From a virus (lineage: Duplodnaviria; Caudoviricetes): a stretch of 51,137 bases of DNA. The stretch spans positions 1-51,137 of IMG/VR virus record IMGVR_UViG_3300037962_000135. One strand, given 5' to 3'. Below are positions 672-40,629 of this stretch, in pieces. The notes below the pieces were generated by a model. The model was not told the DNA's origin and did no database searches. It saw only the letters and a list, made by a program, of their open reading frames with translations. Numbering within the stretch: the first letter of the stretch is position 1; each line of letters begins with the position of its first letter. The position numbers and the translations under genes are program-made.

Positions 672-848
672 TCATTGAAGAGAGGTAGTAGAACCTGGAA
701 ACATTCTGGCTTCTATAAAAGCAACTGCTTGATCGTCTATTGTATTGTCCGTTTGCTTGGCTATTGCCTTTAACAAATCCACTATCAATCTTTTCATTGC
801 CTTGGATTTAATAAAGACTAGAAGGATAGGTTTTAGAATTTTTACCAT
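672..848 (-). CDS. 58-aa conserved small protein (TDNTIDD motif), not in ORF track
   Basis: Hand translation MVKILKPILLVFIKSKAMKRLIVDLLKAIAKQTDNTIDDQAVAFIEARMFPGSTTSLQ. Same-length homolog at 38496..38672. Confidence 0.85.
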   Translation of the reverse strand: MVKILKPILLVFIKSKAMKRLIVDLLKAIAKQTDNTIDDQAVAFIEARMFPGSTTSLQ

Positions 849-913
849 CGTTTTTATGTGTTACTTCCCAAACATAGCTACTTTGCTAGTATTAGACAAG
901 AATCTTTACTTTT

Positions 914-1183
914 ATGGCTGAAGAGAAAGAAGAAAAAGAAGGTATTGAATGGGGTGAACTTTTTGGTCATGCGATCAGATTTCTGATTTTGACCTGGAGT
1001 TTATCAATGATGACTTTGGGATACATGGGTAAGGTAAGGATTGATGGAGCGTTTACGGCTGGACTCGTCAGTGGGGTGCTCGGAAGCTATGGAATTTCAG
1101 TAGGAAACAAGAAAAGTGGCACAAATAACAGTAATAGTCCTAAAATAGTAGATAATAGTAAAAACAAAGTAGGTATCAAATGA
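914..1183 (+). CDS. Two-TM membrane protein (holin-like topology, function unproven)
   Basis: Acidic N-terminus, two hydrophobic segments around IDGAF, basic C-terminus. Homolog 38756..39052. Confidence 0.7.
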   Translation: MAEEKEEKEGIEWGELFGHAIRFLILTWSLSMMTLGYMGKVRIDGAFTAGLVSGVLGSYGISVGNKKSGTNNSNSPKIVDNSKNKVGIK

Positions 1184-1665
1184 AAAGACTACTACCTTTT
1201 ATATTTCTTGTATCTGCACCAGCTTATGCGGACATGAATCATTCCATATCATCCAGTGTAAAGTTTGAATCACTTTCAGCAGCTAGTACAGCTGATAAGA
1301 TCGGTAGTTCATACAGTATCTCAGGTAATAATGTAACAACTGTGGACTCAAATTCAGCAGCTACAATAGGTGGGTTTGGTTCTGTTACAAATGGCGTACC
1401 AGCAGTAACTTTTCCTTCTGCTACGCAAGCGACTTCGGGAGAAGCCTTTAGTTTTACTACTAGCTATTTGGAAGGAGATGCCACCCCAGGTAGTGCAGTT
1501 ACAGTAGGAACTGTACCAAACTTCAGTGATTTAACCTCAACTTCTGCTGGAAGTGTAGGAACAGCAGCAGTAGCAATAGATAATCACACTATTACGATGA
1601 CACCTGGAACTGGAACGGGTATTGTAATGACAGGTCAGTTTGTCGTTGATCTCACTATCGAATGA
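1180..1665 (+). CDS. Exported Ser/Thr/Gly-rich protein with signal peptide
   Basis: MKRLLPFIFLVSAPAYA|D signal peptide; ATGA-coupled. Homolog 39049..39555. Confidence 0.85.
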   Translation: MKRLLPFIFLVSAPAYADMNHSISSSVKFESLSAASTADKIGSSYSISGNNVTTVDSNSAATIGGFGSVTNGVPAVTFPSATQATSGEAFSFTTSYLEGDATPGSAVTVGTVPNFSDLTSTSAGSVGTAAVAIDNHTITMTPGTGTGIVMTGQFVVDLTIE

Positions 1666-2087
1666 GGAGGCTACTTCTTCTTGGCTTTGTTATATCTGCT
1701 CCTTGTTACGCTGTGCCAGTTATACCTAATTTTACGCAGGGTAGTTCCACCAGCCGAACCGAAACTACCACAAATATTACAGAGACTATACGAACAACAG
1801 AATATAATTCTGGGTTTCTTTACTCAGTTACAGGATCGGGTATTCAGCATGACGGATCTTCTATTACTCCAGCAGCTACCTCAGTTAGTGAAACAATAAA
1901 CGGAACTACTCATACATGGCAGGGATTAAATCTAGACCAAAGACCAAACTGGACTCAAACAAATCAGGGAGATGCTTTTCAATTTACAGAAGTTTATCAA
2001 GCACCTGGAATGGAATCCGTAACAGACATTACACGCACGATCCAAAGCACAAGCGTCACAGATACCACAACTATCTTCTCGCAATAA
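1662..2087 (+). CDS. Exported Thr-rich protein with signal peptide
   Basis: MRRLLLLGFVISAPCYA|VPVIPNF. Homolog 39559..39999 shares PNFT, YxVTG, AFQFTE, IFSQ/VFSQ. Confidence 0.85.
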   Translation: MRRLLLLGFVISAPCYAVPVIPNFTQGSSTSRTETTTNITETIRTTEYNSGFLYSVTGSGIQHDGSSITPAATSVSETINGTTHTWQGLNLDQRPNWTQTNQGDAFQFTEVYQAPGMESVTDITRTIQSTSVTDTTTIFSQ

Positions 2088-2695
2088 GTCTGCTAGGTAA
2101 TCCTGTACTAGCTAATACAAGCAATACGGCTGCTCCAAGTGCATCGGCCTCTGGATCGGTTTCAAACTTTGCGACCCAAGTTTTAGGTGGACCAATGGTA
2201 GAAAATACATACGGAAATAATATCAAGTGTTCTGGGCCACAAATGACAGTAAGCCCATTTGTCACTACATCGTTCAACCAAAAAAGGCCACAGGACTACA
2301 TTTACCATACACCCGTGTACGATCCAACAGACGCAAATGATGATGGAGTGCCAGATAATCCAGGAAATGTACTTTATTATCAAGAAAACTACAGTGGTAA
2401 CAAGGATTCTTTAGGACTTAACTTTGGATTCGCACTTACATTTAATATTCCGCTAGATAAAAGATTTCAAGATTCTTGTCTTGACGCAGCTAATACACAA
2501 ATAAATTTACAGAAACAAGAATTAAATGCAAAGCTGCTCAACTATGAAATAGCCCGTTTAAAAAATTGTGGAGAATTATACTTAAAGGGAATTTCTTTCG
2601 ACCCTAAATCTAACTTTGCAAAATTATGCGAAGGGGTCGTTGTTCAACCGCCTCCAAATCAAGTTATACCTCACAGTCATAAATTAAAGCAGTAG
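1916..2695 (+). CDS. Exported/envelope protein with Cys pairs; start uncertain
   Basis: Internal signal-like segment (LLAISLLGNPVLA|N), DANDDGVPD motif, FGFALTFNIPLD strand, 4 conserved Cys. Homolog 39813..40595. Confidence 0.8.
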   Translation: MAGIKSRPKTKLDSNKSGRCFSIYRSLSSTWNGIRNRHYTHDPKHKRHRYHNYLLAISLLGNPVLANTSNTAAPSASASGSVSNFATQVLGGPMVENTYGNNIKCSGPQMTVSPFVTTSFNQKRPQDYIYHTPVYDPTDANDDGVPDNPGNVLYYQENYSGNKDSLGLNFGFALTFNIPLDKRFQDSCLDAANTQINLQKQELNAKLLNYEIARLKNCGELYLKGISFDPKSNFAKLCEGVVVQPPPNQVIPHSHKLKQ

Positions 2696-2721
2696 ACAAG
2701 CACGGGTTTTAACTTGTCTAC
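2692..2721. other. Conserved hairpin between convergent genes
   Basis: GTAGACAAG-cacgggttttaa-CTTGTCTAC. Covarying copy at 40592..40623. Confidence 0.6.
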
Positions 2722-2728
2722 CTAGACG

Positions 2729-2767
2729 CCCTATCCATTGCCTTGGCGAATAGGGTTCTTTTATTTT
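2729..2767 (+). terminator. Possible intrinsic terminator
   Basis: CCCTAT...ATAGGG stem followed by TTCTTTTATTTT. Absent in unit B. Confidence 0.4.
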
Positions 2768-3399
2768 AACTTATCTTTCTTCTTTGTCAGCTTTTTTATT
2801 AGGTTTTTTACTAAGGGTTTGACAATATTAAGCAGTAATGGAGTAGAGGCAGCAACAGTAGCAATAACAGCAGTGCTAACAAGCTGTGGAGGATTCGGTA
2901 TGTATTGCTCGATGAATTTAGTGCTTTCATACAAGGTTATACATTCACTACCATCTTCGCTTCTTTCATGTCCAATGACACGTTCCAGTTTAAATTCGTT
3001 ACGATAATCCCCTACTCTTTGATCTTTTTTGCCAGGACAGGCAACAAAAAGCGGATCATCTTTTTTCTTTTTTGGTTCGTATTTTGGAGGTTCTACCGTT
3101 GGTTGAACAAATTCTTGTTCCTGATTTTGGGGGGTTTCTGATTGTGTATATACAAATTCGTTGGGGTTATACTGCAAAGGTTCAAAACTAGGAATACTGA
3201 AGTTACCACATTCTGTATATGTGCCGTATTCATCTTTATCACTATCAATGAGACTTGTAAGATTATTTCTATGTACTCTTACACAACCAGGAATATCAAC
3301 TATAGGTTTACTTATGTTATTTAATGTTGGTACGTTAGGCTTCCATATCGGTATTTTATGAATCTCAATCCTGTTTACACTAATCTTTGGTATTTCCAT
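2761..3399 (-). CDS. Cys-containing protein with C-terminal membrane anchor
   Basis: PGCV..HR, CPG..DQRVGD, ECITLYE, hydrophobic tail followed by basic residues. Homolog 40630..41271. Confidence 0.85.
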   Translation of the reverse strand: MEIPKISVNRIEIHKIPIWKPNVPTLNNISKPIVDIPGCVRVHRNNLTSLIDSDKDEYGTYTECGNFSIPSFEPLQYNPNEFVYTQSETPQNQEQEFVQPTVEPPKYEPKKKKDDPLFVACPGKKDQRVGDYRNEFKLERVIGHERSEDGSECITLYESTKFIEQYIPNPPQLVSTAVIATVAASTPLLLNIVKPLVKNLIKKLTKKKDKLK

Positions 3400-3607
3400 C
3401 TTTTATATCTCCTATAGAAATAGACCAGCCATCTTCTCCAAACTTACCTTTTTCTACAATCTTAGGTTTTTTTACTTTTTTATCTAATTCTTCGTGATAT
3501 TTTTTTATGTCATTATCAAGTTCTAAATTGAATTTTTGCATACGCATCCAATGGATAAACTTATCTACATAGTATTTAACTAACTTTTTTATAAAACCAA
3601 ATATCAT
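3380..3607 (-). CDS. Hypothetical protein
   Basis: Nearly identical homolog 41258..41479; coupled to neighbours. Confidence 0.8.
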   Translation of the reverse strand: MIFGFIKKLVKYYVDKFIHWMRMQKFNLELDNDIKKYHEELDKKVKKPKIVEKGKFGEDGWSISIGDIKDGNTKD

Positions 3608-3759
3608 TTTGGTAAATAAACTTCTACATAAGAATTACATTTAGGACAAGATAAATTAGTTACCATTGAATATTCTTCTGAAAGAACAGGTTGAAAATCT
3701 TCATCAATACTATGATCTCCACCCCAGATTAATTCGGTTTTACAATGCCAGCAGTTCAA
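3604..3759 (-). CDS. 51-aa CxxC...CxxC zinc-ribbon protein, not in ORF track
   Basis: TTG start; NCWHCKTELIWGGD...NLSCPKCNSYVEVYLPK. Stop/start overlaps on both sides. Homolog 41479..41646. Confidence 0.85.
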   Translation of the reverse strand: MNCWHCKTELIWGGDHSIDEDFQPVLSEEYSMVTNLSCPKCNSYVEVYLPK

Positions 3760-3986
3760 ATTCCTAATCCTTTTGGTATTGGTAATGATTCTCCTGTAAC
3801 ATCAGGTAATTCTTTTTCCAGTATTTTTGGCATCATGCCTTGAACATTCCCAAGGATCTCATTCATTACTTGAGACTTAAAATTTTCAGATGTTACATAT
3901 TTGTATGCAAAGTACATTCCACCGCTCATAGAGGCTACCATTACAAATGAGACAATACTTAAAATGTTTGCGATTTTTTGAAACAT
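3756..3986 (-). CDS. Small protein with N-terminal TM segment
   Basis: MFQKIANILSIVSFVMVASMSGG is identical in homolog 41643..41864. Start taken at the conserved Met. Confidence 0.85.
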   Translation of the reverse strand: MFQKIANILSIVSFVMVASMSGGMYFAYKYVTSENFKSQVMNEILGNVQGMMPKILEKELPDVTGESLPIPKGLGI

Positions 3987-4137
3987 GGTCAAAGAAGTTC
4001 TTAATAAAATGGTAGCACCACTTACTCTGATGGTGCTGTTGCTTCTTGTGGGGTTGATGCCTCTGTATCTGATGGCTGGTTTGCTTCGGGTTCAGCTTCA
4101 AGAATCTGTTGTTCGAGAATCTTCATTGCACCGCTGA
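3985..4137 (+). CDS. 50-aa antisense single-TM peptide, not in ORF track
   Basis: MVKEVLNKMVAPLTLMVLLLLVGLMPLYLMAGLLRVQLQE... aligns without gaps to 41863..41994. Confidence 0.7.
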   Translation: MVKEVLNKMVAPLTLMVLLLLVGLMPLYLMAGLLRVQLQESVVRESSLHR

Positions 4138-4207
4138 CTTCATATAAAGCAATTTGTAAATTTTGCCTTTCAATAGCAAGTTGTTGTAGTTTTTCTTTAA
4201 GATTCAT
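4022..4207 (-). CDS. Small coiled-coil protein downstream of tail fibre
   Basis: ORF in the fibre operon with heptad-like N-terminal half. The acidic tail overlaps the antisense peptide. Confidence 0.65.
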   Translation of the reverse strand: MNLKEKLQQLAIERQNLQIALYEVSGAMKILEQQILEAEPEANQPSDTEASTPQEATAPSE

Positions 4208-4210
4208 AGT

Positions 4211-4459
4211 TTAATAGAGTTTTTTACCAGCAACAATAGCAGCATCTATGGCTGTAAAATCTTCTGATGTCCAGATAGATGTCGTTCCATCTAGCTTTTT
4301 GTAAGCTTTAATAATTTCGAGATGCTCTACATTTCTCTGAATTTTTTCTTTAAATTCAGCTTCAGTTTCATCGCCTGTTTTTGCTGTGTCAATAACAGTA
4401 ACGCTATCACCAGCACCAGAATAAATTACTGCAATTTCTTCTGCGGTTTTTTCTTCCAT
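4211..4459 (-). CDS. Tail-fibre-associated hypothetical protein
   Basis: Directly follows the fibre gene; IQRNVEHLEI...WTSEDFT motif. Confidence 0.7.
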   Translation of the reverse strand: MEEKTAEEIAVIYSGAGDSVTVIDTAKTGDETEAEFKEKIQRNVEHLEIIKAYKKLDGTTSIWTSEDFTAIDAAIVAGKKLY

Positions 4460-4485: not shown

Positions 4486-7400
4486 TTACCCTGCTTCGAG
4501 GGCTTTGACTTTTACGGATAACTCTTTTACAGCATTAACTAAATACCACATTAAATTATCAGAATTTACAGTCTTAATACCATACGATGATGTTTCTACA
4601 CATTCAGGTAATACTTCTTCAAGTTCTTGTGCAATTACACCAATTTGTTGACCAGATTTATCTACTGCTACGTTTTTAGCTACTTTTTCTAATTCTGGAT
4701 TATTTTCAATAATCTCTTCTAAAGTTTTATATTCAAAATTCCGTATTTGGATTTTTTCAAGTAAATTTATTCCAGAATTATTATTAACAATATTTTTCTT
4801 TATTCTTCTATCAGAAGTAGTTGACCAACTAGAGCTATTATCACTTTGGAATGAACCCGAAGATGCTCGGACTTTAAAAGTATCACTACCAGCACCAGCA
4901 ATGTTATATCCTAAAACTATTGACCTGTCAGAATTTCCAACCCTTGAATAATTACCAATAGAAATATTTTGCCCACCTGTTGTAGTATGGGAAGAATATG
5001 CAGCAGCGTTGTAACCTATAAAAACATTATCAGTACCAGTTGTAACGTAATAACCAGCAGCGTTTCCAAGAAAAGTTTGTGAATGTCCCGTAGTCAGGTT
5101 GTATCCAGCTTCACGACCAACACAGGTATTTAAATTAGCAGTTGTTTGATTGTACGCTGCTCTTATTCCAACAAAAACATTATTATCACCTGTAGTTAAG
5201 TTATAACCAGCAGCATAACCTATTGCTGTGTTCTGACCACCATCAGTTGATAATGCTAAAGCATAAGAACCTACTGCTGTACAATCATTATTTACATTAT
5301 TTCTTAATGCAAAATAACCAACGGCTGTGTTGTCATTGTCGGTGGTATTAGCCATTAATGCAGCAACTCCTACCGCAGTATTTCTAATTCCTGTTGTGTT
5401 GTCATAAAGGCCATTATGACCTACGGCAGTATTGTAATTTCCAGTTGTGTTGTCGTGTAATGTATGACAACCTATTCCAGTATTCTCAATTCCTGTTGTA
5501 TTGCTCGTGAGTGCTTTATAACCAAAAGCATTTATTTTCGTTCCTGTCGTGTTTGCGTCTGCGGTATAAGCTCCCATAGCCGTATTCTCACTCGCAGTTG
5601 TATTAGAAGTAAGGCATTTATACCCAACAGCAGTATTGTTACTAGCACTTGTATTGGAACCTAAAGCACCTGATCCAATCCCAACATTATTACTTCCTGT
5701 GTTAACTCTTAAAGCTGGTTGTGCTGAACCATCAAAAGCACCTACAGCAGTATTTCCTGTTGCTGTAGTTACGTCACCTAAAGCAAACCTACCAATCGCA
5801 ACATTTCCAACGCCTGTAGTTAAATCATCTAGTGCATGTGATCCAACCGCAATACAGTTATGAGCTCCAGTTGCAGTATCCATTGCGTTATAGCCTATTG
5901 CAACGTTTTCAACAGCAGTTGTACTGCTAGTTAACGCATTTACACCGATAGCCACATTGTAATTACCTGTAGTGTTAGCATCCAAAGCAGCAGTACCTAC
6001 AGCAGTATTCGATGATCCAGTTGTGTTTTGATCTAAAGCATGATAACCCACAGCAGTATTATTATCTGCTGTAGTATTTGCAGATAAAGCTCCCTTACCA
6101 ATTCCAGTGTTTTGAGCACCAGTTGTATTTAATACAAGAGCAGCAAGACCTACAGCAGTATTGTCACTAGCGGTAGTATTTGCAGCTAAAGCGGTTTCTC
6201 CTAAAGCGGTGTTTTGCGAACCAGTTGTGTTTGCTCCTAAAGCACTTCTACCAACCCCAGTATTGTTATTTCCAGTAGTGTTAGCATCTAATGCGTTAGC
6301 ACCTACAGCAACATTTTGAGTTCCAGTTGTGTTTGCATCTAAAGCGTAATATCCAACTGCTGTGTTGTTAGATGCTGTTGTGTTATTAGTTAATGCAGAC
6401 CTACCACAAGCAGTATTATTTGCACCTGTCGTGTTTAATACTAAAGAATTATATCCAATAGAAGTATTTGCATTTGCGGTTGTATTATTAAATAATGCTC
6501 TCCTGCCTATTCCAGTATTTTCTGTTCCAGTTGTATTTGAAGTTAAAGATTGATAACCTATTGCGGTGTTAGCGGCTGCCGTAGTATTTGCATCTAACGC
6601 ATTTGCACCTAAGGCTGTGTTTTCTGTTCCAGTTGTGTTTACTCTTAACGCATTAACACCGACAGCAACATTATTATTGGCTGTAGTGTTATCTCCCAAA
6701 GCACCACTACCTACAGCAGTATTATCTGAACCAGTTGTGTTATCCGTAAGAGCGAATTGACCAATTGCAGTATTAGCACCTGCTGTAGTATTAGCATCTA
6801 AAGCAACATATCCTACCGCAACATTCCCTGCTCCAGTTGTGTTTAACAATAAAGCTTGATAACCAACTGAAGTGTTATTATCTGCCGTAGTGTTTTCTCT
6901 TAAAGCACCAGAACCAACAGCAACATTAAAATCTCCAGTTGTATTGTATCTCATTGCCTGAAGACCTAATCCAGTATTATTAGCACCTGTCGTATTACTA
7001 TTTAAACTCCTTACACCTAATGCAGTATTATTATCACCAGTTGTATTTACGTCTAGACATAAACTACCTACAGCAGTATTTGAACCTCCAGTTGTGGTTA
7101 ATTTAAGAGCATCATGTCCAACGGCAGTATTATTTGAACCAGAAGTTAAAGTTGTTAATGCTGAATTTCCAATCGCTGTGTTATCTGCACCAGTAACAGC
7201 AGCATCTAAAGCACTTTCTCCAAGAACAGTGTTACCAGCAACAGAGTTTGCACCTTTACCGACAGTTAAAGAATTTATTGTCGCATCAGCAGTTGTTGTA
7301 ACCCCTCCAGTCAATGTTCTTAAATCAATCCAGCCGTCATTTGCTGAATTACGCATTTTTAATAAATTATTACTTGTATCAGCCCACAACATATATGCAG

Positions 7401-7521
7401 CAGTGGTACTAGGAGCAGAACCAGAACTGTTATTTGTTAATATCGCTTGCAGTACATTATTTAAATCAGTTCGGACATTAGCTCCAGTGGAGTTATCTAT
7501 TACATAATCGTGAGTAGCCAT
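4486..7521 (-). CDS. Long tail fibre with NTAVG repeats and C-terminal intramolecular chaperone (peptidase S74-like)
   Basis: 14-aa repeats NTAVGxxALxxNTT; C-terminal SDRRIKKNI...GVIAQE...LVNAVKELS. Confidence 0.9.
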   Translation of the reverse strand: MATHDYVIDNSTGANVRTDLNNVLQAILTNNSSGSAPSTTAAYMLWADTSNNLLKMRNSANDGWIDLRTLTGGVTTTADATINSLTVGKGANSVAGNTVLGESALDAAVTGADNTAIGNSALTTLTSGSNNTAVGHDALKLTTTGGSNTAVGSLCLDVNTTGDNNTALGVRSLNSNTTGANNTGLGLQAMRYNTTGDFNVAVGSGALRENTTADNNTSVGYQALLLNTTGAGNVAVGYVALDANTTAGANTAIGQFALTDNTTGSDNTAVGSGALGDNTTANNNVAVGVNALRVNTTGTENTALGANALDANTTAAANTAIGYQSLTSNTTGTENTGIGRRALFNNTTANANTSIGYNSLVLNTTGANNTACGRSALTNNTTASNNTAVGYYALDANTTGTQNVAVGANALDANTTGNNNTGVGRSALGANTTGSQNTALGETALAANTTASDNTAVGLAALVLNTTGAQNTGIGKGALSANTTADNNTAVGYHALDQNTTGSSNTAVGTAALDANTTGNYNVAIGVNALTSSTTAVENVAIGYNAMDTATGAHNCIAVGSHALDDLTTGVGNVAIGRFALGDVTTATGNTAVGAFDGSAQPALRVNTGSNNVGIGSGALGSNTSASNNTAVGYKCLTSNTTASENTAMGAYTADANTTGTKINAFGYKALTSNTTGIENTGIGCHTLHDNTTGNYNTAVGHNGLYDNTTGIRNTAVGVAALMANTTDNDNTAVGYFALRNNVNNDCTAVGSYALALSTDGGQNTAIGYAAGYNLTTGDNNVFVGIRAAYNQTTANLNTCVGREAGYNLTTGHSQTFLGNAAGYYVTTGTDNVFIGYNAAAYSSHTTTGGQNISIGNYSRVGNSDRSIVLGYNIAGAGSDTFKVRASSGSFQSDNSSSWSTTSDRRIKKNIVNNNSGINLLEKIQIRNFEYKTLEEIIENNPELEKVAKNVAVDKSGQQIGVIAQELEEVLPECVETSSYGIKTVNSDNLMWYLVNAVKELSVKVKALEAG
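4900..7240 (-). repeat. Degenerate ~42-bp coding tandem repeat in tail fibre
   Basis: On the order of 50 NTAVG/NVAVG units in the translation. Boundaries approximate. Confidence 0.85.
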
Positions 7522-11226: not shown

Positions 11227-11843
11227 GCCTGTACCTGTTCAGTATCTACGGAAGCACTAATTACAACCGATCCAGTGAATATTTCTCCGTAAACTATAGG
11301 AACGGGTGTGCCAGCCCTTGATGTATTCTGTAGTCCATTAAAACTAAAAGATAATCTAGGATCTTCCTCTGAACTAAAATCTGGCTTTTTAGGTAAAGGA
11401 GTTAGCATTTCAGAAACTCCAGTAAGAACTAAAGCTATACCTATATTTCCTGCAAATGCAGCAAAACTAAATGCTCCAGATGCAGTTGCAAATCCTCCCC
11501 CTAAACCCCCTGGTCCAAGACCGAAACCTACAGTTGGATTTATGATTGCAAACCCAATTAATACAGCACCCAGTAATATCTTTCCTAATCCTCTACCAGC
11601 ACCCGTTATTACAGGAATTAAGTGTATATCCTGTTGCCCTATTGGATCTCCTAGTTCAGTTTTATCTAGCTCGTAATCTCCAACTTTTAATTTATAGTAT
11701 CTATCATTCATGTGCTGCTCGATTCCAGGGAAATTATTTATCAAAAAACTCATTGCGTGAGCTAAAGTATCCGCTTTTATTTCAAATTCTTTATGACCTA
11801 CAAACTTTGCAAGCTCTCCATATAATTTTATTTTACGAAGCAT
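11223..11843 (-). CDS. Tail assembly protein, lambda gpI-like
   Basis: IKLYGELAKF start, IHLIPVITGAG, FSFNGLQNTSRAGTPVPIVYGE. Confidence 0.9.
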   Translation of the reverse strand: MLRKIKLYGELAKFVGHKEFEIKADTLAHAMSFLINNFPGIEQHMNDRYYKLKVGDYELDKTELGDPIGQQDIHLIPVITGAGRGLGKILLGAVLIGFAIINPTVGFGLGPGGLGGGFATASGAFSFAAFAGNIGIALVLTGVSEMLTPLPKKPDFSSEEDPRLSFSFNGLQNTSRAGTPVPIVYGEIFTGSVVISASVDTEQVQA

Positions 11844-12534
11844 AACGATACCTCTTTCCTGTACATTTTAATAACCACGGAGAATATGGCTCTCTACAAG
11901 ATAGTCTATCGGTTAAATGATGTAATACCTCATCTCCAAGAAAAATAGCTACATGATTTAAAGTTGAATCTAAAATACTCATTAGTAAAACATCTCCAGA
12001 TTGTAGCTTTTCATCTGGCCTTAATTCTCTAAAACCTGTTCGCCAAGCATAACTTTCAAATAAAGGATCTTTCATAAACTCTTCTGGGGTTATAGGTCTT
12101 TCATAGTCTTTTAACTTTATTCCTTTCTCCTGCTTATAGTAATCACGAACCAAAGACCAACAGTCTGTTACACCCCATACCCATTGTCTACCTAAAAGGG
12201 GTGCTTCATAACCCTGCGGTTCATAATATCCCCACTGTTTTGTTTTTGGATTAACTATGTGCCAAGGTAATCCACTTTGTTCACAACTGACTTTATCCGC
12301 CTGACTAGCTATCGCAGGAGTTGTCGGATGACTGTGAACAACAGCAACTATATCTCCCAGATTATCGGCCTTTACATAATCCTCTGGATCGAGAATGAAA
12401 CATTGATGTGCTGTCATTGAAAGATTACGACAAGGATAATATCTTTCTTTTCCTCGAACATTTAACAAAAGACCAACAGATTCTTTTGGATCTTCTATCT
12501 CAGCATGATTAAGTGCAGCGTCTTTCCAATTCAT
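11833..12534 (-). CDS. Tail assembly protein, lambda gpK-like (JAB/MPN + NlpC/P60)
   Basis: VHSHP...SQAD JAMM motif; DCWSLVRDYY and NHVAIFLG..VLHH. Confidence 0.92.
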   Translation of the reverse strand: MNWKDAALNHAEIEDPKESVGLLLNVRGKERYYPCRNLSMTAHQCFILDPEDYVKADNLGDIVAVVHSHPTTPAIASQADKVSCEQSGLPWHIVNPKTKQWGYYEPQGYEAPLLGRQWVWGVTDCWSLVRDYYKQEKGIKLKDYERPITPEEFMKDPLFESYAWRTGFRELRPDEKLQSGDVLLMSILDSTLNHVAIFLGDEVLHHLTDRLSCREPYSPWLLKCTGKRYRYAS

Positions 12535-25990: not shown

Positions 25991-26176
25991 TTAGTTCAGT
26001 TTATAGCAGATATCAGAATTAGAATAAATTTTCATACATTTTTCGTAGGCTGTATTGTCTACGATACTTGCGAAAATAAAAGTACTGATAAAAATAACCA
26101 GAGCAAATCGAACATAATTAAGATTAGATCGTGTTTCTAATCGGTAGCGATTGCGTGGATTGTTTGAGTTTGACAT
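25991..26176 (-). CDS. Small single-TM protein
   Basis: MSNSNNPR...FALVIFISTFIFASIV...C-x8-C. Confidence 0.6.
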   Translation of the reverse strand: MSNSNNPRNRYRLETRSNLNYVRFALVIFISTFIFASIVDNTAYEKCMKIYSNSDICYKLN

Positions 26177-26217
26177 TTTACAGTGAAGCAATGGGAAAGA
26201 GAAGAAAAACAGAATAA

Positions 26218-26337
26218 TTAAAAGTTTGGAAAATGGATTTTAAAAAGTTTACTAGCTTCAGTATGTTTTCCTAAATTGGTTAACATTCTTACTGTTTCTA
26301 GTATTCTTGTTTTTTCAATTTGTTTCTTAGTTTTCAT
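26218..26337 (-). CDS. 39-aa hypothetical protein, not in ORF track
   Basis: MKTKKQIEKTRILETVRMLTNLGKHTEASKLFKIHFPNF; ATGA overlap. Confidence 0.55.
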   Translation of the reverse strand: MKTKKQIEKTRILETVRMLTNLGKHTEASKLFKIHFPNF

Positions 26338-26861
26338 TTTCTGTTTCTCTCAAGTTTTAATAATTTCTGATAACAGATATTTAATAATTTTTCCTGACTT
26401 GTTGATTTGTCAGCAACAATTAAAAAATAAGTTACTTTTGATTTTCCGCATCTTTTAATTTTACAAAGATGATCATAAAGATTATCTGTTATACATTCGG
26501 GATTCATAAAACTTTCAAATGTTATAACATCATTTGGGTCTATTGTTGCCGAATCTATTCCGCCCCATTTACTGGGAGGTAACACCTCCAGATGATACCA
26601 ATACGTTTTCTCTGTAACTACTTTTGGTTTGTCTACTTTGTATTCTCTTTCATTTGTTTTGTCTCTCATTTCTGAAGCTTTAACAAATGAAGTGACTATT
26701 GCATTTGGGTATTCTTTTAAAACTTCATCAATAGAATTATAAGAATACATAAGGGAACCATCTTGTTTTATGAAGTCAACAAAGTTGGCTGATTTAACAT
26801 CATAAATTACATCATTTTTCATAATGCGATCTAGTGTTGTTTCTTTGGTTTGGGTGGTCAT
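26334..26861 (-). CDS. Hypothetical early protein (DUF1419-like motif)
   Basis: TEKTYWYHLEVLPP motif. Start set to the ATG downstream of the promoter. Confidence 0.65.
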   Translation of the reverse strand: MTTQTKETTLDRIMKNDVIYDVKSANFVDFIKQDGSLMYSYNSIDEVLKEYPNAIVTSFVKASEMRDKTNEREYKVDKPKVVTEKTYWYHLEVLPPSKWGGIDSATIDPNDVITFESFMNPECITDNLYDHLCKIKRCGKSKVTYFLIVADKSTSQEKLLNICYQKLLKLERNRK

Positions 26862-26889
26862 AAGAAAAAAGAATAGAGTATTCCCTTTA

Positions 26890-26918
26890 ATTATAGTTGA
26901 TTTTAATATGTAAATCAA
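26890..26918 (-). promoter_or_regulatory. Sigma70-type promoter
   Basis: TTGATT-17 bp-TATAAT. Confidence 0.65.
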
Positions 26919-27118
26919 GACTAGAATATTACTCTAATAGCAACTAAAAAACCCTAAAAATAGGTACTTTTTAACCTCTAATCTCAACTTAAGAATTAAT
27001 AAGATTCTCAAATCCCTTGCTATCACTTAATAATCTCATAAGTAAGAATCCTATAATTTTAAAATTTTAACGTGTATTTGTACCTTAACCAGTTTAAAAT
27101 CATTCAAAAATAGCACAA

Positions 27119-27150
27119 TAAAAAAGCTAGAATCTATACAGAATCTAGCC
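27119..27150 (-). terminator. Intrinsic terminator
   Basis: GCTAGA...TCTAGC followed by T run on the minus strand. Confidence 0.6.
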
Positions 27151-27178
27151 GTTAATTAATTAGTTCCTGATCTAATTT

Positions 27179-27661
27179 TTATACATAATCACAAAACTTA
27201 AAAAATCTTTTTCTATTCTCATTTATCACTTCATAATATTTATCTGCTTTTTCTTTTTCTGTAAAATAATCATAAGTAAAAGTATTTTTAATTTTTTTAA
27301 TTTGACTTTCGTCTAACCTTAAAATTTCTCTTAATTTTTCAGTTTTTAAAATTTTATTTTCTTCTATTCTTTTTTTAGCTTTTTCTATTCTTATTAAATC
27401 TCTTTCAATATCATCATCAAAATCATTTAAATCTTTAAAATTATTTCTTGAGATATAGTGAACTGTTGAACAGTCTTGATAAGTTCTTCTTACTGTATAG
27501 TCCCCGTTAGATTCTAATAAATGTTCTAAATCTGAAATTTCACAAATATAATTATCATCCTCATAATATTCATCATTATTTTTAATTTTCAATTCTTCAT
27601 ATTCTTTTTCTAAATTAGCTAATCTTTTTTTAGCAATTAATTTGTAATTGGTTTTAGTCAT
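27179..27661 (-). CDS. Hypothetical charged early protein
   Basis: 160-aa ORF in very AT-rich DNA, with its own promoter and terminator. Confidence 0.7.
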   Translation of the reverse strand: MTKTNYKLIAKKRLANLEKEYEELKIKNNDEYYEDDNYICEISDLEHLLESNGDYTVRRTYQDCSTVHYISRNNFKDLNDFDDDIERDLIRIEKAKKRIEENKILKTEKLREILRLDESQIKKIKNTFTYDYFTEKEKADKYYEVINENRKRFFKFCDYV

Positions 27662-27690
27662 TTGTAAATTTTGGGTGAATGTACAATAGT

Positions 27691-27719
27691 ATTCTAGTCC
27701 ATATTGAATGAAATTTCAA
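27691..27719 (-). promoter_or_regulatory. Sigma70-type promoter
   Basis: TTGAAA-17 bp-TAGAAT. Confidence 0.55.
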
Positions 27720-27724
27720 ACAAT

Positions 27725-27753
27725 AAAAAACCCTGACTTTTTACATCAGGGTT
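27725..27753 (-). terminator. Intrinsic terminator
   Basis: AACCCTGA...TCAGGGTT followed by T run. Confidence 0.7.
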
Positions 27754-27771
27754 AATAAATAATGAATGTTT

Positions 27772-28848
27772 TTATCTAGTTAAAGCTAAACATTCTCTTT
27801 TAGCTAAATCAATTCTCGAACCACATTTTCCATTTAATAAACTTTCCATTCTTACTCTTGCACCTTTTATATCGTCTTTAACTCTCTGTTCACAATGTGT
27901 TTGTTGAAAGGTTAAAGCGTTAAAGCAATTATATAAATTAGGTTCTATTTCAAAATTTTGAGTCTCTTTAAGAAAATTACTTCTAATATCTGCCCATTCT
28001 TTTGAAAGATCTTTATTAAAATCTTTTGGTCTTTTTTCTTTTGTTTCTTTATCTACTACCGATCCAATTAATTTATCTTGTAGCATTTGTTTTGAAAGGT
28101 TTTTTAAAACTTCCATAGCCTGAGATCTATTATTGAATGAAACATTTTTCATAGCTTTAAATTCTTCAATAGAATTTGAAAGATCCTCACGTTGCCAAGA
28201 TATAAACTCTGGTAGGTTTTTAACATAATCGTTAATACCTTTTGAATGTTTAAAAACAAGTTTATTTTTTGAGCGATTAATTCTACCCATTTGATTGAAA
28301 CAGAATAATCTAAAATCAATAGAAACAACTTTGAATGAGTACGAACCATCATAAGAATTTATAAAACATAATCTCCTACGAATTTGGTCATCTTTAGATA
28401 CTTCAATATCAGAGTCTTTGACTCCACCAGACACGAAAATTCTAGCTCCATTATTCATAAGGCATATATTCTCAAGTGAAAGAATATCTTTATTTCTTTC
28501 AAAGACTTCATATATTGGTTCATTATCTTGAGTAGCGTATGTTTTGGACATTACGCTTAATGGATTTCCAGTTTTAGAATCAACTATACATTTATGATTT
28601 GGTAATTGAATATCGTTACCAAAACTATTTTTAATGTATATATCGGTATCTACTGGTTGATTTAATGCTCCAGTTTTTTCAAATGCTTCACGAATTGAGA
28701 TACCAGTATTTTGTGCAATAGTGTTACCACATAAATCCTCGTTACCTAGTCTTTTAAAACCATTTGGATTTTGGTAGGGTTTTTCTACCATTAATTGAGA
28801 TTCTGCACTAAATACAGTGTCTACTAAATTGGGTTGAAAATAGTTCAT
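27772..28848 (-). CDS. DUF932-like protein
   Basis: INSYDGS...RLFCFNQ...KHS and NLYNCFNALT motifs. Confidence 0.75.
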   Translation of the reverse strand: MNYFQPNLVDTVFSAESQLMVEKPYQNPNGFKRLGNEDLCGNTIAQNTGISIREAFEKTGALNQPVDTDIYIKNSFGNDIQLPNHKCIVDSKTGNPLSVMSKTYATQDNEPIYEVFERNKDILSLENICLMNNGARIFVSGGVKDSDIEVSKDDQIRRRLCFINSYDGSYSFKVVSIDFRLFCFNQMGRINRSKNKLVFKHSKGINDYVKNLPEFISWQREDLSNSIEEFKAMKNVSFNNRSQAMEVLKNLSKQMLQDKLIGSVVDKETKEKRPKDFNKDLSKEWADIRSNFLKETQNFEIEPNLYNCFNALTFQQTHCEQRVKDDIKGARVRMESLLNGKCGSRIDLAKRECLALTR

Positions 28849-29142
28849 TTGGGTGTTGAAAAATAACTACATATGTATATTAAAGTATTATTCTATTAAA
28901 AACAATATCAATTCATACTATTTATAGAAATTAAAATTTTATCAATTAACCTATCTGCACGATACTGTAAATTCTCTGAAAAATGATTATTATAATTATT
29001 TGAAATTTTTTGAAGAATAATTAAAATAAAAAATAAATCTTGAATAGATAGGCTGACATGACTATGTTTAAAAAACTTATGAATGGTTGAGGCCATGATG
29101 AATTAAAGAAAAATGAATGGACAATCCATAGATAACCTAGTC

Positions 29143-29197
29143 AATTATGAATGTCAAATTCTGAGAATTATCAATGAGAATTATGAATGAGAATTTT
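29143..29197. repeat. 13-bp tandem repeats at the strand-switch point
   Basis: TGAGAATT three times at 13-bp spacing (AATTATSAATGAG unit). Confidence 0.65.
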
Positions 29198-29201
29198 GAT
29201 A

Positions 29202-29230
29202 TTGCATATTAAAGGCGATTCATGTAATAT
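29202..29230 (+). promoter_or_regulatory. Sigma70-type promoter
   Basis: TTGCAT-17 bp-TAATAT upstream of 29257. Confidence 0.55.
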
Positions 29231-29256
29231 TGTAATGTCCATTAACCACAATTATT

Positions 29257-29475
29257 ATGGCTGTCGATCCACTAGACAACAGTAGTGAAAGGTTTTTAAC
29301 TTTTACTATTGCTGAAATAAAAATCTTAGTCGGTATGATGACTAAGTTGAAAGAACTTTTCCCTATTGAAGGACATTATTACATTCATAAAGCCTGTAAC
29401 ATATTAATCACAATATGTAAGCAACAACTATCTACTGAAGATGTAGACGAGCTAAAAGAGAGATACGGGATATGA
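29257..29475 (+). CDS. Hypothetical protein
   Basis: First ORF of a coupled plus-strand operon. Confidence 0.65.
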   Translation: MAVDPLDNSSERFLTFTIAEIKILVGMMTKLKELFPIEGHYYIHKACNILITICKQQLSTEDVDELKERYGI

Positions 29476-29642
29476 ATAAACACCTTATATATAAAGCCTT
29501 AGAAAATATGGATAGGTTCGGGGGAAGTTTTGTTTCTTCCCTCGCTTTTTGCTATTCACAGGCCGATCCAGATAATCAGACTATTCTTTTTAATGCTTTT
29601 GAGCATCTATTCAATAAGTATGCAACTTTTGAAGATGACTAA
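29472..29642 (+). CDS. 56-aa hypothetical protein, not in ORF track
   Basis: MNKHLIYKALENMDRFGGSFVSSLAFCYSQADPDNQ...; ATGA overlap. Confidence 0.75.
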   Translation: MNKHLIYKALENMDRFGGSFVSSLAFCYSQADPDNQTILFNAFEHLFNKYATFEDD

Positions 29643-29982
29643 AGAAGAAGCTGAGAACTTTATCTATAAATGTCTGGTAGATAACGAATCCAAAAAAGAT
29701 CCAAAAGAAAAATTAACTCGTTTGGATATATGCGATATACTGCACACTGATTTTGAGATTCCTAAGTCTACGGCATATAGATATTACAAAGACTCCTTTA
29801 ATCTATACAAATGGGAACAGGCTAAACCCGATCCAACAAAAAAGATTAAAGATACAAAAGATACCATACTGGATAGCGTATTAGATGAAGCTGAAAGTTT
29901 GTTAGCTGACGGAGATTCTGTTGGTTATTTCAAAGGTATCGAACTATATTCAAAATTACTTACGAGGTTTAAAAAAGTATGA
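29635..29982 (+). CDS. HTH-like protein
   Basis: ICDILHTDFEIPKSTAYRYYK. Start reassigned to the ATG at 29635. Confidence 0.65.
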   Translation: MTKEEAENFIYKCLVDNESKKDPKEKLTRLDICDILHTDFEIPKSTAYRYYKDSFNLYKWEQAKPDPTKKIKDTKDTILDSVLDEAESLLADGDSVGYFKGIELYSKLLTRFKKV

Positions 29983-30146
29983 AAAAAATTACCGAAAAAA
30001 GAAAATTAGAGTTAAAAGCTGAAAGAGATTTAACTCAAATACTTTACAGAGCTAGAGATAAAGCCGAAGGCTTTTCTGTACCAAAACATACATATCCTGA
30101 CTTAACAGTTAAGGAAATTCAAAATGTTATTAACCATTACTTATGA
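29979..30146 (+). CDS. 55-aa hypothetical protein, not in ORF track
   Basis: MKKITEKRKLELKAERDL...; ATGA overlap. Confidence 0.6.
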   Translation: MKKITEKRKLELKAERDLTQILYRARDKAEGFSVPKHTYPDLTVKEIQNVINHYL

Positions 30147-38495: not shown

Positions 38496-38672
38496 TCATT
38501 GAAGATTAGTTGTAGATCCTGGGAACATTCTGGCCTCAATAAATTCAACTGCCTGATCGTCTATTGAGTTGTCTGTCTGTTTAGCTATTGCTTTTAGCAG
38601 ATCCACAATCAATCTTTTCATCGCTTTTGACTTGATGAATATGAGAAGAATAGGTTTTAGAATCTTTACCAT
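38496..38672 (-). CDS. 58-aa conserved small protein (unit B)
   Basis: Homolog of 672..848. Confidence 0.85.
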   Translation of the reverse strand: MVKILKPILLIFIKSKAMKRLIVDLLKAIAKQTDNSIDDQAVEFIEARMFPGSTTNLQ

Positions 38673-38755
38673 TTGTATGTAGCGTCTACTTCTACTTTAC
38701 CGCTATTTGCCAAACTTGGCCTCAATCCTTATATTTATAGTATATCACTAAGATT

Positions 38756-39555: not shown

Positions 39556-39558
39556 TTT

Positions 39559-40595: not shown

Positions 40596-40629
40596 ATAAG
40601 CCACGGGTATTAAACTCATCTACGGATTA

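Follow-up and report, generated by a model that had tools for sequence, protein, structure and literature searches.

The closest described counterpart of the locus analysed here is a gene cassette of cyanomyoviruses. Sullivan et al. (2010, PMC3037559) reported it as clustered genes for hypothetical proteins, comprising T4-GCs 218, 219, 234, 235, and 237 and a ‘plasmid stability’ protein; the sections of that paper considered here assign the cassette no function and contain no mention of export signals, of copies in siphoviruses or podoviruses, or of a relation to lysozyme. The cassette is located at PHM1_192-198 in phage P-HM1 and in the gp165 region of phage Syn9. Classical lysis cassettes of phages of Gram-negative hosts encode a holin, an endolysin, and i- and o-spanins, as in the S-R-Rz/Rz1 genes of lambda and genes 17.5/3.5/18.5/18.7 of T7. 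The endolysin Lys44 of Oenococcus phage fOg44 has a known catalytic domain and carries a signal peptide for Sec-dependent export.

The 51,137-nt window, which is the whole stretch of DNA analysed here, contains the genome of a siphovirus resembling P-HS2 and MED4-184, which the assembly runs through about 1.36 times. The ten ORFs of a putative exported and membrane module given in a preliminary description of the window (o1–o10) were all confirmed at positions 672-4137, and again in a second copy (Table 1). The two units of the window represent one genome from two diverged variants, with 73-97% nucleotide identity. At the amino-acid level, the units are 93% identical in o1, 83% in both o7 and o8, and 70% in o9, and 32, 41, 47, 53, and 46% identical in o2, o3, o4, o5, and o6, respectively. 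The zinc-ribbon gene upstream of the block is 97% identical between the units.

Table 1 Features of the block and its neighbours in the window.
Feature	Position	Strand	Length	Description
o1	672-848	-	58 aa	Amphipathic N-terminus, TDNxxDD motif (TDNTIDD)
o2	914-1183	+	89 aa	Two TM segments (hydrophobic/Gly-rich); DUF6450, T4-GC 218
o3	1180-1665	+	161 aa	Predicted exported Ser/Thr/Gly-rich β protein; T4-GC 237
o4	1662-2087	+	141 aa	Predicted exported β protein; DUF6322, T4-GC 236
o5	1916-2695	+	259 aa (precursor)	Syn9 gp165, T4-GC 235
o6	2761-3399	-	212 aa	Convergent with o5; T4-GC 234
o7	3380-3607	-	75 aa	Basic, lineage-specific; 8 sources only
o8	3604-3759	-	51 aa	C4 zinc ribbon, CxxC...CxxC
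o9	3756-3992	-	78 aa	N-terminal TM; T4-GC 414
o10	3985-4137	+	43-50 aa in family	Single-TM peptide
o11	4022-4207	-	61 aa	Small, acidic; 15 sources
o12	4211-4459	-	82 aa	Small, acidic; 21 sources
Second copy of o1–o10	38496-41994			Diverged; wrapped-round part of contig

Export or membrane insertion is predicted for seven of the ten products, in line with the preliminary description, and the underlying signal-peptide and transmembrane features are kept across diverged homologues. Depositors' GenBank notes on the homologues from phage P-SSP7, which give TMHMM and SignalP predictions, agree with this reading; the note on the o2 homologue records ‘2 transmembrane regions predicted by TMHMM’. The o1 protein matches phrog_2738 (E 4e-22) and phrog_402 (E 3e-6), and has HMM matches in L001, L009, and L238. 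The o2 protein is a member of DUF6450 (PF20048; 30.2 bits, Pfam cut-off 25) with an acidic N-terminus and a basic C-terminus, and its stop codon overlaps the start codon of o3 in the sequence ATGA.

The o3, o4, and o5 proteins each have a basic n-region, a hydrophobic core, and an AxA-type cleavage site, which are conserved in alignments of their homologues. All three signal peptides previously described are thus predicted here too, except that the one of o5 is internal: it follows a basic extension of about 52 residues, with predicted cleavage after A66. The extension is encoded within the 3′ end of o4 in the -1 frame, and the 172-nt overlap of the two genes in the window has its equivalent in all 161 distinct o4/o5 gene pairs. 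The o3 and o4 proteins represent two paralogous, β-rich, putatively exported families (DUF6322; hhalign probability 97.5%, E 8.8e-12). The o3 protein matches phrog_564 (E 2.7e-42) and is labelled ‘OMP1 protein’ in some GenBank records (Supplementary Table 2, PMC7238727). The o4 protein matches DUF6322 (PF19847) at 117.6 bits (cut-off 30.6), and its mature N-terminus, VPVVPNF, is nearly invariant in the alignment. The AF2 model of o4 (pLDDT 84.6) is all-β, with two strands of about 23 residues. When the sequence is read against the model, both faces of these strands are polar, and o4 is therefore not an obvious lipid-facing barrel. Fold searches with o4 gave no match to a solved fold (best Foldseek E 0.015, TM 0.23-0.29; best VIA Z 3.2). 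Both searches were topped by pore-state lysenin, binary-toxin translocases, the tail tubes of phages phi29 and P68, and Ena spore-appendage subunits, with which o4 has the geometry of a two-strand hairpin in common at non-significant scores, and we do not claim membership. The o5 protein matches phrog_848 (E 5e-85); its mature form of about 193 residues contains four invariant cysteines, a long helix, and a C-terminal HxH motif, and its AF2 model (pLDDT only 55.6) was too poor for a fold search.

The o6 protein (phrog_570, E 1.8e-41; 210 representatives at E<=0.001) is composed of two small two-cysteine domains joined by a proline-rich linker, a C-terminal hydrophobic segment (residues 173-193 by hydropathy) that probably serves as an anchor, and a basic tail. 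The four invariant cysteines of o5 and the four conserved cysteines of o6 would match extracytoplasmic disulfides. The o8 protein has weak, below-cut-off matches to zinc-ribbon families of Pfam, and its 58 ORFs from 57 sources belong to the siphovirus lineage only. The o9 protein (phrog_568, E 9.5e-16) is known in cyanophage annotations as the ‘plasmid stability’ protein. The o10 gene points away from o9, the two starts sharing 8 nt, and is antisense to the leftward gene string in which it lies. It is represented by 87 ORFs from 86 sources, with 76 distinct sequences sharing the pattern M-I/V-K...PLY, and is also present in phage MED4-184; judged from these sequences, o10 is a genuine conserved gene. 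The o11 and o12 genes sit between the tail fibre gene and o9 as lineage-specific neighbours outside the core, and had no family matches in Pfam, PHROGs, or NCBIfam.

Searches of Pfam, PHROGs, NCBIfam, and PDB profiles, together with the o4 fold searches, matched no module member to a solved fold or to a named family with a function, and detected no muralytic or catalytic domain. No holin, endolysin, or spanin family of PHROGs or Pfam was matched by any member.

Homologues of the block are present in sipho-, myo-, and podoviruses in a conserved order, in support of the preliminary description, which mentions similar proteins in other cyanophages. The idea of a ten-gene apparatus did not hold, as the core common to the three morphotypes is four to six families rather than ten genes. 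Six families, o2–o6 and o9, are conserved beyond the siphovirus lineage in T4-like cyanomyoviruses; among 80 myovirus loci, o2 was found in 61, o3/o4 in 79, o5 in 77, o6 in 74, and o9 in 47, and o1, o7, o8, and o10 in none. Gene for gene, the block corresponds to the cyanomyovirus cassette as o2=GC218, o3=GC237, o4=GC236, o5=GC235, o6=GC234, and o9=GC414, and the order and convergence of o3-o4-o5 and o6-o9 are the same. The two differ in that o2 heads the rightward operon in the siphovirus and follows o9 in the myoviruses, and in the addition of o1, o7, o8, and o10 in the siphovirus lineage. The commonest order among the myovirus loci shown is o3+ o4+ o5+ o6- o9- o2- (30 loci), and that of siphovirus-like loci is o1- o2+ o3+ o4+ o5+ o6- ... 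o9- o10+.

The podoviruses P-SSP7 and NATL1A-7 carry o1, which is otherwise present in the siphovirus lineage, o2 (HMM E 1.7e-32 and 2.3e-32, respectively), o4, o5, and a weak o6-like HMM match; o9 was not found in either by HMM search. In both podoviruses, the block, with four of the six families, is flanked by the tail fibre and small terminase genes, the location of holin gene 17.5 on the T7 map, and in the window it follows the tail fibre gene. The myovirus cassette is situated among the auxiliary genes hli, psbA, and 2OG-Fe(II) oxygenase, far from structural genes. A tblastn search with o5 matched 428 phage records, of which 417 are named as Synechococcus, Cyanophage, or Prochlorococcus phages, ten are ‘Marine virus’ single-cell records, and one is uncultured. 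When 185,579 species genomes were scanned for the families, four loci were recovered, on a 3.4-kb MAG contig, an 8.4-kb single-cell-genome contig, and contigs of 13 and 41 kb, with unchanged gene order where enough DNA was present. The module families are restricted to phages.

None of eight testable classical endolysin families, including Phage_lysozyme, Amidase_2, SLT, M23, GH25, M15_4, and Amidase_3, exceeded its cut-off in six-frame searches of six module-bearing records (the window, P-HM1, MED4-184, NATL1A-7, P-SSP7, and Syn9), in agreement with the previous failure to recognise an endolysin in the unit. The suggested anti-correlation with endolysins was found among 14 T4-like cyanophages, which were taken from hit lists rather than at random and whose kinship is uncontrolled: a stand-alone Phage_lysozyme ORF is present in all six module-free genomes (S-PM2, S-CAM7, ACG-2014f, S-CREM1, S-SRM01, and S-CRM01) and in none of the eight module-bearing ones (P-HM1, Syn9, S-B05, S-T4, S-RIM44, P-RSM4, S-CAM3, and Syn30; Fisher p = 3.3e-4, relatedness ignored). 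The lysozyme-bearing phages may belong to a few old lineages. Profiles of o4 and o6 matched none of the six module-free records, and that of o5 gave one weak partial match, in S-CAM7 (E 1.1e-5). Phages S-SRM01 and S-CRM01 originate from freshwater reservoirs. Module-bearing P-RSM4 also has a Phage_lysozyme domain, which is inside a 935-aa frame and is probably of the baseplate-hub type. Both the module and the tested endolysin families are absent from phages Syn5, P60, and P-SS2. Cyanophages therefore commonly have lysis enzymes that go unrecognised, and the absence of an endolysin is by itself weak evidence.

The block resembles classical lysis cassettes in that its small membrane proteins (o2, o9, and o10) have charged ends, its products are envelope-directed, and its predicted periplasmic cysteines are conserved. 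The start of o5 inside o4 is reminiscent of Rz1 within Rz of lambda, and the podovirus cassette shares the map position of T7 gene 17.5. Expression is also similarly late: PHM2_192-197 of phage P-HM2 are classed as Late (D/E), apart from the o5 orthologue, which is Mid (C) and in this counts against a role in lysis (supplement, PMC5082946). Unlike classical cassettes, the block has no recognisable muralytic domain. It lacks a lipoprotein box and hence an o-spanin, and o4 and o5 are both predicted to be Sec-exported soluble proteins instead of a transmembrane protein and a lipoprotein. As in systems of the fOg44 Lys44 type, effectors would be Sec-exported before lysis and membrane proteins would control their activation; o3, o4, o5, and o6 showed no comparable catalytic domain.

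We tentatively propose, with a little less than even confidence, that the block is the siphovirus form of an envelope-disrupting lysis or egress cassette peculiar to marine picocyanobacterial phages, one that replaces classical endolysin-based lysis. Translationally coupled rightward expression of o2-o3-o4-o5 would provide one small inner-membrane protein with two TM segments, together with three proteins exported by Sec. Bitopic o9 and o6, and, in the siphovirus lineage, o7 and o8, would come from the distal part of the leftward gene string of the tail fibre, and the small peptide o10, with its TM segment, from the opposite strand. The β-rich paralogues o3 and o4 and disulfide-bonded o5, with its β domain, helix of about 40 residues, and C-terminal HxH, may build up in the periplasm or outer membrane, possibly as a complex. 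The o6 protein, held by its C-terminal TM anchor, would present two disulfide-stabilised domains on a proline-rich spacer, and o2, o9, and o10 could have holin-like timing or permeabilising roles. Jointly, the members would breach the wall and/or outer membrane at the end of infection. Predicted localisation and complementarity with lysozyme thus speak for the lysis or egress role first suggested in the preliminary description; no enzyme was identified, and neither an envelope-spanning structure nor a muralytic domain was demonstrated for the apparatus envisaged there.

The divergence of o2–o6 between the units (32-53% amino-acid identity), beside 93% in o1 and 97% in the zinc-ribbon gene, counts against lysis; it is a pattern that genes for host-surface or defence interactions typically show as well. 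It fits an evolutionary arms race against variable host surfaces, in which the block would remodel the envelope for superinfection exclusion, receptor masking, or progeny protection, altering or blocking the host surface and thereby keeping other phages, or progeny already released, from adsorbing to the cell or its debris. Superinfection exclusion and surface display, the other roles suggested in the preliminary description, would both be alternatives to lysis. The predicted export and membrane features apply equally to such remodelling, and the host-specific spread of o5 agrees with it. We nevertheless consider it unlikely. Exclusion genes are usually early, and the mid/late P-HM2 orthologues argue somewhat against an early exclusion role; PADLOC defence models matched none of the ten proteins; and both the complementarity with stand-alone lysozyme and the T7-holin-locus position in podoviruses would be left unexplained. 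The mixture of exported (o3–o5, outer-membrane or periplasmic) and inner-membrane (o2, o6, o9) parts, the proline-rich periplasmic spacer of o6, the OMP1 name of o3, and the auxiliary-gene surroundings in myoviruses could instead indicate a small uptake or export apparatus, a trans-envelope transport or assembly system aiding phage production in the spirit of phage-borne PstS. This is improbable, since auxiliary genes are usually host-derived, whereas the block is without any cellular homologue and shows no similarity to transporter, porin, or TonB/Tol families (Pfam, PHROGs, NCBIfam, PDB profiles); the polar strands of o4 and the complementarity with lysozyme also stand against it.

Low-copy tail accessory or chaperone proteins missed by proteomics would account for the tail-fibre neighbourhood in the window and podoviruses, mid/late expression in P-HM2, and the podovirus tail-tube proteins among the top, non-significant o4 fold matches. 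Such virion-associated or assembly proteins are a very remote prospect, because predicted cleavable signal peptides and conserved cysteine pairs do not suit cytoplasmic assembly, and the myovirus cassette is far from structural genes. The ‘Existence of Proteomic Data?’ cell is moreover empty for T4-GCs 218, 234-237, and 414 in the supplementary table consulted, which covers three virion proteomes (PMC3037559), consistent with the earlier view that these are not ordinary virion proteins. Equally far-fetched is a selfish mobile cassette or a toxin/antitoxin-like addiction module of small membrane peptides, one that takes no direct part in infection. The sections of Sullivan et al. (2010, PMC3037559) considered here describe a variable position in 6 of 15 cyanomyovirus genomes carrying the cassette and propose mobility via the plasmid stability protein, and the cassette-wise divergence between the units and the small hydrophobic o10, antisense to its neighbours, would agree with this. 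Against it, no member has a recombinase, nuclease, or partition domain (Pfam, PHROGs, NCBIfam), and o9, a 78-aa TM protein, is not of the ParE/StbB type. The order of six families is kept at 30-50% identity over three morphotypes, and this points to selection for a shared role.

The absence of classical endolysins from six module-bearing phages and the complementary distribution of lysozyme are new here. Since the cassette is found in place of the ordinary cell-wall-cutting enzyme, these phages may use it to burst their hosts.

The gene content of the window (the whole record, 51,137 bases) is that of a lambda-like siphovirus, and its closest named relatives are Prochlorococcus phages MED4-184 and P-HS2. 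Direct repeats with 73-97% nucleotide identity are spaced 37.5-38.1 kb apart, the second copy starting at ~37490, so the contig passes ~1.36 times round the genome. The two units proposed in the preliminary description are both present, but are explained by this one genome read past its own start. Since the overlapping ends differ, we infer that the window is a co-assembly of two strain variants, not a true concatemer. Protein identity between the units is mosaic: 97% for the Zn-ribbon gene at 159-356, 93% for o1, and 32-53% for o2-o6. This pattern suggests that co-occurring strains exchange whole cassettes, or that the assembly is chimeric. A low-GC island at 26000-30000 (26-29% versus about 37-39% elsewhere) contains ORFs without family match, except for a DUF932 protein at 27772-28848. 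The tail fibre contains degenerate repeats whose spacings are multiples of 51 nt, and one repeat family has 13 copies.

The block at 672-4137 had been described as ten genes kept in both units, and all ten ORFs are indeed found there, with the same ten genes at 38496-41994 in unit 2. The stop codons of o2 and o3 overlap the start codons of o3 and o4, respectively, as ATGA. The o3 protein scores 15.9 bits against DUF6322 (PF19847), under the 30.6 cut-off. Alignment of the o3 and o4 profiles with hhalign gives a probability of 97.5% (E 8.8e-12), and the iterated o3 profile takes in the o4 family; o3 and o4 are paralogues. The operon picture of the module is drawn entirely from gene spacing and orientation. 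A promoter and terminator scan returned five promoter-like sites against 13.1 expected and four terminator-like sites against 2.4 expected, which leaves operon boundaries unsupported. The start codons of o9 (-) and o10 (+) lie within an 8-nt overlap at 3985-3992 (2 nt in unit 2). Such a head-to-head pair of small membrane proteins is unusual amid the otherwise leftward gene string. The o10 ORF is a real gene, with 76 distinct sequences that follow one pattern. The idea that the small neighbouring ORF o11 is the real gene in place of o10 was rejected as an either/or choice, with o10 present in 86 sources and o11 in 15.

Genes of the ten-ORF module and other annotated features of the window
Feature	Position	Strand	Description
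o1	672-848	-	58 aa; TDNTIDD motif; phrog_2738
o2	914-1183	+	89 aa; two membrane segments; Pfam DUF6450 (PF20048), 30.2 bits, curated cut-off 25
o3	1180-1665	+	Ser/Thr-rich; N-terminal signal peptide
o4	1662-2087	+	Ser/Thr-rich; N-terminal signal peptide; Pfam DUF6322 (PF19847), 117.6 bits, curated cut-off 30.6
o5	1916-2695	+	phrog_848
o6	2761-3399	-	phrog_570; four Cys; hydrophobic segment at residues 173-193; Lys-rich tail
o7	3380-3607	-	Identified as an ORF at this position
o8	3604-3759	-	Two CxxC pairs
o9	3756-3992	-	N-terminal TM segment; phrog_568 'plasmid stability'
o10	3985-4137	+	Small TM protein
Tail fibre	4486-7521		1011 aa; repeat-rich; C-terminal Peptidase_S74 intramolecular chaperone domain
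Head and packaging genes			Terminase, portal, scaffold, major head protein
Tail-tip genes			Proteins M, L, K and I, and central tail fibre J
Probable tape-measure protein			Assigned by size and position; no family match
Replication genes			Family-A DNA polymerase, primase-helicase, exonuclease

The module was compared across 206 related loci, in which all ORFs were searched with iterated profiles. The set comprises 80 close relatives of the window o5, 42 loci around an o5 of 51% identity, 4 from a prokaryote species-genome collection, and 80 around the o5 of the T4-like phage P-HM1 (the myovirus loci). Because many of the myovirus loci are contig ends, family counts among these 80 are lower bounds: at least 61 for o2, 79 for o3/o4, 77 for o5, 74 for o6, and 47 for o9, with no match to o1, o7, o8, or o10. 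The o7 ORF is restricted to 8 sources among the 206 loci. The commonest gene order, o3+ o4+ o5+ o6- o9- o2-, occurs in 30 of the 206 loci and is the arrangement of the myovirus loci displayed; the second, oU- o1- o2+ o3+ o4+ o5+ o6- o9- o10+, occurs in 19 siphovirus-like loci. The remaining loci are mostly truncated forms of these two orders. The T7-like podoviruses P-SSP7 and NATL1A-7 have profile matches to o2 (E about 2e-32), one o4, o5, and o1, as well as a weakly matching o6-like TM protein. Their module genes share a single strand and are flanked by the tail-fibre genes and the small terminase; the depositors' GenBank notes on the P-SSP7 homologues give TMHMM and SignalP predictions. The members thus occur together in other phages, as had been expected, in set orders over the 206 loci and in two podoviruses.

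The distribution of the module is confined to phages. A tblastn search with o5 matched 428 phage records, of which 417 are named as Synechococcus, Cyanophage, or Prochlorococcus phages, 10 as 'Marine virus' single-cell records, and 1 as uncultured. A scan of 185,579 prokaryote species, one genome each, found just four loci, located on a single-cell-genome contig of 8.4 kb, a MAG contig of 3.4 kb, and contigs of 13 and 41 kb. These four have the phage module order wherever the length of DNA allowed, so the module has no cellular homologue. The 8.4-kb contig, from a single-cell genome labelled uncultured Alphaproteobacteria, encodes o1-o6 at 90-97% protein identity. The host of this phage lineage is therefore not to be taken from the MED4 phages alone, and the labelled cell may merely have had a phage attached.

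The proteins of the window are 40% (o3), 48% (o4), 37% (o5), 30% (o6), and 32% (o9) identical to their P-HM1 counterparts in tblastn, and the o2 profile matches PHM1_192 at E 3.3e-51. The P-HM1 record carries the T4-GC labels. The arrangement of o3-o4-o5 convergent on o6-o9, which is that of the cassette, was confirmed over the 206 loci. Homology to PHM1_192-198 and clustering both hold, and by these sequence relationships the module is assigned to the cassette T4-GC 218/234/235/236/237/414 of Sullivan et al. (2010). That article reports the cassette from every one of 16 cyanomyoviruses except S-PM2, and proposes that its genes have a common function and that it is mobile (PMC3037559). In its supplementary spreadsheet, which draws on the virion proteomes of S-SM1, Syn9, and S-PM2, the proteomics column is blank for T4-GCs 218, 234-237, and 414 (PMC3037559). 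File 6 of Thompson et al. (2016) lists PHM2_192, 193, 194, and 197 as Late, PHM2_196 as Late (light) or Mid (dark), and PHM2_195, the o5 orthologue, as Mid (PMC5082946). PHM2_195-197 map to o5, o4, and o3 through the orthologues tabulated in the PMC7238727 supplement, and PHM2_192-194 would map to the module by analogy with P-HM1. The same supplement names o3 orthologues 'OMP1 protein' in several records, and lists g165 with diel transcription in the field (PMC7238727). The plasmid stability gene was still viewed as a mobility factor in a paper from 2022 (PMC9602691). No assigned function for the cassette was found in the literature searched, the coverage of which excludes most subscription journals.

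Across Pfam, PHROGs, NCBIfam, and PADLOC, no module protein matches a family whose function is known. Rows for Cas10 obtained with o12, another small neighbouring ORF, in the NCBIfam and PADLOC search (15-17 bits) were disregarded as weak. Profile searches of the PDB with alignments of o3, o4, o5, and o6 gave no credible match. A single row fell below E 0.01 (7quz, E 1.6e-4); it spans Ser/Thr-rich sequence and was read as compositional. The AF2 model of o4 (pLDDT 84.6) is all-β, with N- and C-terminal strands of 23-24 residues that, read from the sequence, are polar on both faces. Its best matches among solved structures (Foldseek against the PDB, E 0.015; VIA Z 3.2) are not significant; the top rows are long-hairpin tubes, pores, and fibre subunits. 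The only matches of o4 in BFVD are uncharacterised cyanophage proteins. The o5 model is poor (pLDDT 55.6) and contains a β region followed by a 42-residue helix. An alignment of siphovirus and myovirus o5 sequences has four invariant cysteines, two invariant histidines (HxH near the C-terminus), and one invariant arginine, together with several glycines, prolines, and tyrosines. The o6 family is composed of two small two-cysteine domains, a proline-rich linker, a Thr/Ala/Val-rich hydrophobic segment, and a basic tail of 15-60 residues. The positive-inside rule would place the o6 tail in the cytoplasm and the cysteine domains outside, an orientation that is uncertain because the protein has no N-terminal signal. 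Relatives returned by the homologue search with o6 all exceed 90% identity, and the ESM Atlas matches of o5 and o6 are limited to unnamed viral clusters.

The signal peptide of o5 is internal. It ends at residue 66 and is preceded by ~52 basic residues encoded within the 3' end of o4. From its basic n-region it runs through a hydrophobic core and Gly/Pro to V-x-A, after which comes N-T-S. The o4-o5 overlap occurs in all 161 distinct gene pairs from the fetched loci (172 nt in 118, 178 nt in 41), with o5 always in the -1 frame relative to o4 and starting with ATG in 159. The third frame across the overlap contains 4.3 stops on average and is open in none of the 161 pairs; the long open frame of o5 is therefore kept by selection. 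The overlap is absent from three of 174 o5 ORFs, which are truncated or split loci. The fixed -1 overlap and P0035, a database protein that fuses the o4 N-terminus in-frame to o5, raised the idea of a -1 frameshift joining o4 to o5. This was set aside, as the ATG is kept in place in 159 of 161 pairs and no slippery heptamer was seen by eye. Just 22 open codons precede the match in the o5 frame of MED4-184, where o4 and o5 may be fused by frameshift. No ATG lies ahead of the weak o5 signal peptide in MED4-184/P-HS2 (locus 5326-5369).

Six-frame searches with working controls covered seven endolysin families (Phage_lysozyme, Amidase_2, SLT, M23, GH25, M15_4, and Amidase_3), none of which scored over cut-off in the window, P-HM1, MED4-184, NATL1A-7, P-SSP7, or Syn9. 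The absence of a recognisable endolysin from the unit, noted previously by inspection, thus holds for these families. Searches for GH19 and GH108 matched no genome, control genomes included, and are uninformative. NlpC/P60, used as a positive control, was found in the window in the gpK-like tail protein alone (11875-12192), and had no match at E<=0.01 in MED4-184. The lambda-gpK-like tail-tip protein (11833-12534) combines JAB and NlpC/P60, the sole wall-hydrolase-type domain in the genome. No muralytic domain was matched in the module proteins in Pfam, PHROGs, or NCBIfam.

The o2 protein resembles holins in its small size (89 aa), its two TM segments, and its conserved Lys-rich C-terminus. 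The o9 and o10 proteins are likewise small TM proteins, and such features are not specific to holins. None of the three matches a described holin family, just PHROGs of unknown function and DUF6450, and no endolysin of the tested families was found in the genome. An i-spanin would have an N-terminal TM segment and a periplasmic coiled-coil domain; o9 has an N-terminal TM segment but just ~50 further residues, and the long helix lies in o5, where a cleavable signal peptide takes the place of an anchor. No o-spanin lipobox was found: each of the o3, o4, and o5 signal peptides terminates in an AxA-type site, and the one cysteine in that of the window o4 is not conserved.

Four module-free cyanophages were examined. 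In S-PM2, a stand-alone ORF matches Phage_lysozyme (E 1.1e-22) and is annotated as 'putative lysin'; Syn5, P60, and P-SS2 have neither the module nor any of the tested endolysin families. The S-PM2 lysin gene is adjoined on the opposite strand (locus 1929-2261) by a 110-aa ORF that has a single hydrophobic segment and could encode the holin of this phage. Relatives of the S-PM2 lysin were found in 67 'Synechococcus' phage records. From the matches listed, S-CAM7, ACG-2014f, S-CREM1, S-SRM01, and S-CRM01 were taken as lysin-bearing T4-like phages, one record each; DSL-LC02, DSL-LC03, siphovirus S-CBS3, and 209 further records were left out. The o4 and o6 profiles matched none of these five, and neither did o5, save for a weak partial S-CAM7 match (E 1.1e-5, 82 positions). 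This match (NC_031927.1, 31560-31787) lies within a 179-aa frame and covers the C-terminal portion of the o5 profile; it could represent a distant relative or a remnant. The module-bearing T4-like phages comprise six chosen from the spread of o5 tblastn matches listed, plus P-HM1 and Syn9. Seven of these eight lack a Phage_lysozyme domain, and P-RSM4 has one only within a 935-aa frame. ACG-2014f and S-CRM01 have second copies in frames of 659 and 871 aa. Because of the size of these three frames, we take their Phage_lysozyme domains to be putative baseplate-hub domains. A stand-alone lysin is accordingly present in 6/6 module-free and 0/8 module-bearing T4-like cyanophages (Fisher p = 3.3e-4, with kinship ignored and non-random sampling). 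The 14 records fall in different genera where classified. The anti-correlation with endolysins suggested beforehand is therefore seen in this non-random sample.

The best single explanation of the cassette, which we favour tentatively and rate at slightly below an even chance, is an envelope-disrupting role at the end of infection. It is favoured because of the predicted envelope localisation, the lack of a virion-proteome mark, mid to late transcription, phage-only distribution, the site after the tail fibre, the absence of a classical endolysin, and the complementary distribution with lysozyme. The podovirus module site is the position of the holin gene in T7. The lysis role is held back because no enzyme was found and because Syn5, P60, and P-SS2 lack both systems. 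The divergence of o2-o6 between the co-assembled variants (32-53% identity versus 93-97% in the flanks) would equally suit a role in interaction with the host surface. With more doubt, we speculate that the cassette may provide most marine cyanophages (T4-like, T7-like, and P-HS2-like) with their long-missing means of lysis or egress. Such a system would be endolysin-independent and functionally interchangeable with T4-e-type lysozyme. Sec-exported β-hairpin proteins, an HxH protein with disulfide bonds, and small membrane proteins without a known fold would together breach the picocyanobacterial wall and outer membrane.

The cassette is already in print as a cluster of hypothetical genes. The present analysis adds that it also occurs in siphoviruses and podoviruses and how it is arranged there, and it contributes the features of export and topology, the fixed overlap of o4 and o5, the absence of any known fold, and the complementary distribution with stand-alone lysozyme. 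In module-bearing genomes of all three tail types, classical lysis enzymes were not found among the tested families, and the compact, phage-only, predicted exported, and mid/late-expressed cassette is a candidate stand-in for stand-alone lysozyme across genera. It would also establish several protein families whose fold is unknown; one of these, matched in 428 phage records, ranks with the most widely distributed genes of cyanophages. Should lysis prove the wrong reading, the cassette would still represent a near-universal envelope-directed function of these phages, to date without explanation. Viral lysis of Prochlorococcus and Synechococcus shifts a sizeable share of ocean carbon, and with these additions what had been a vague cluster of conserved hypothetical genes becomes a concrete candidate for cyanophage lysis that can be tested.
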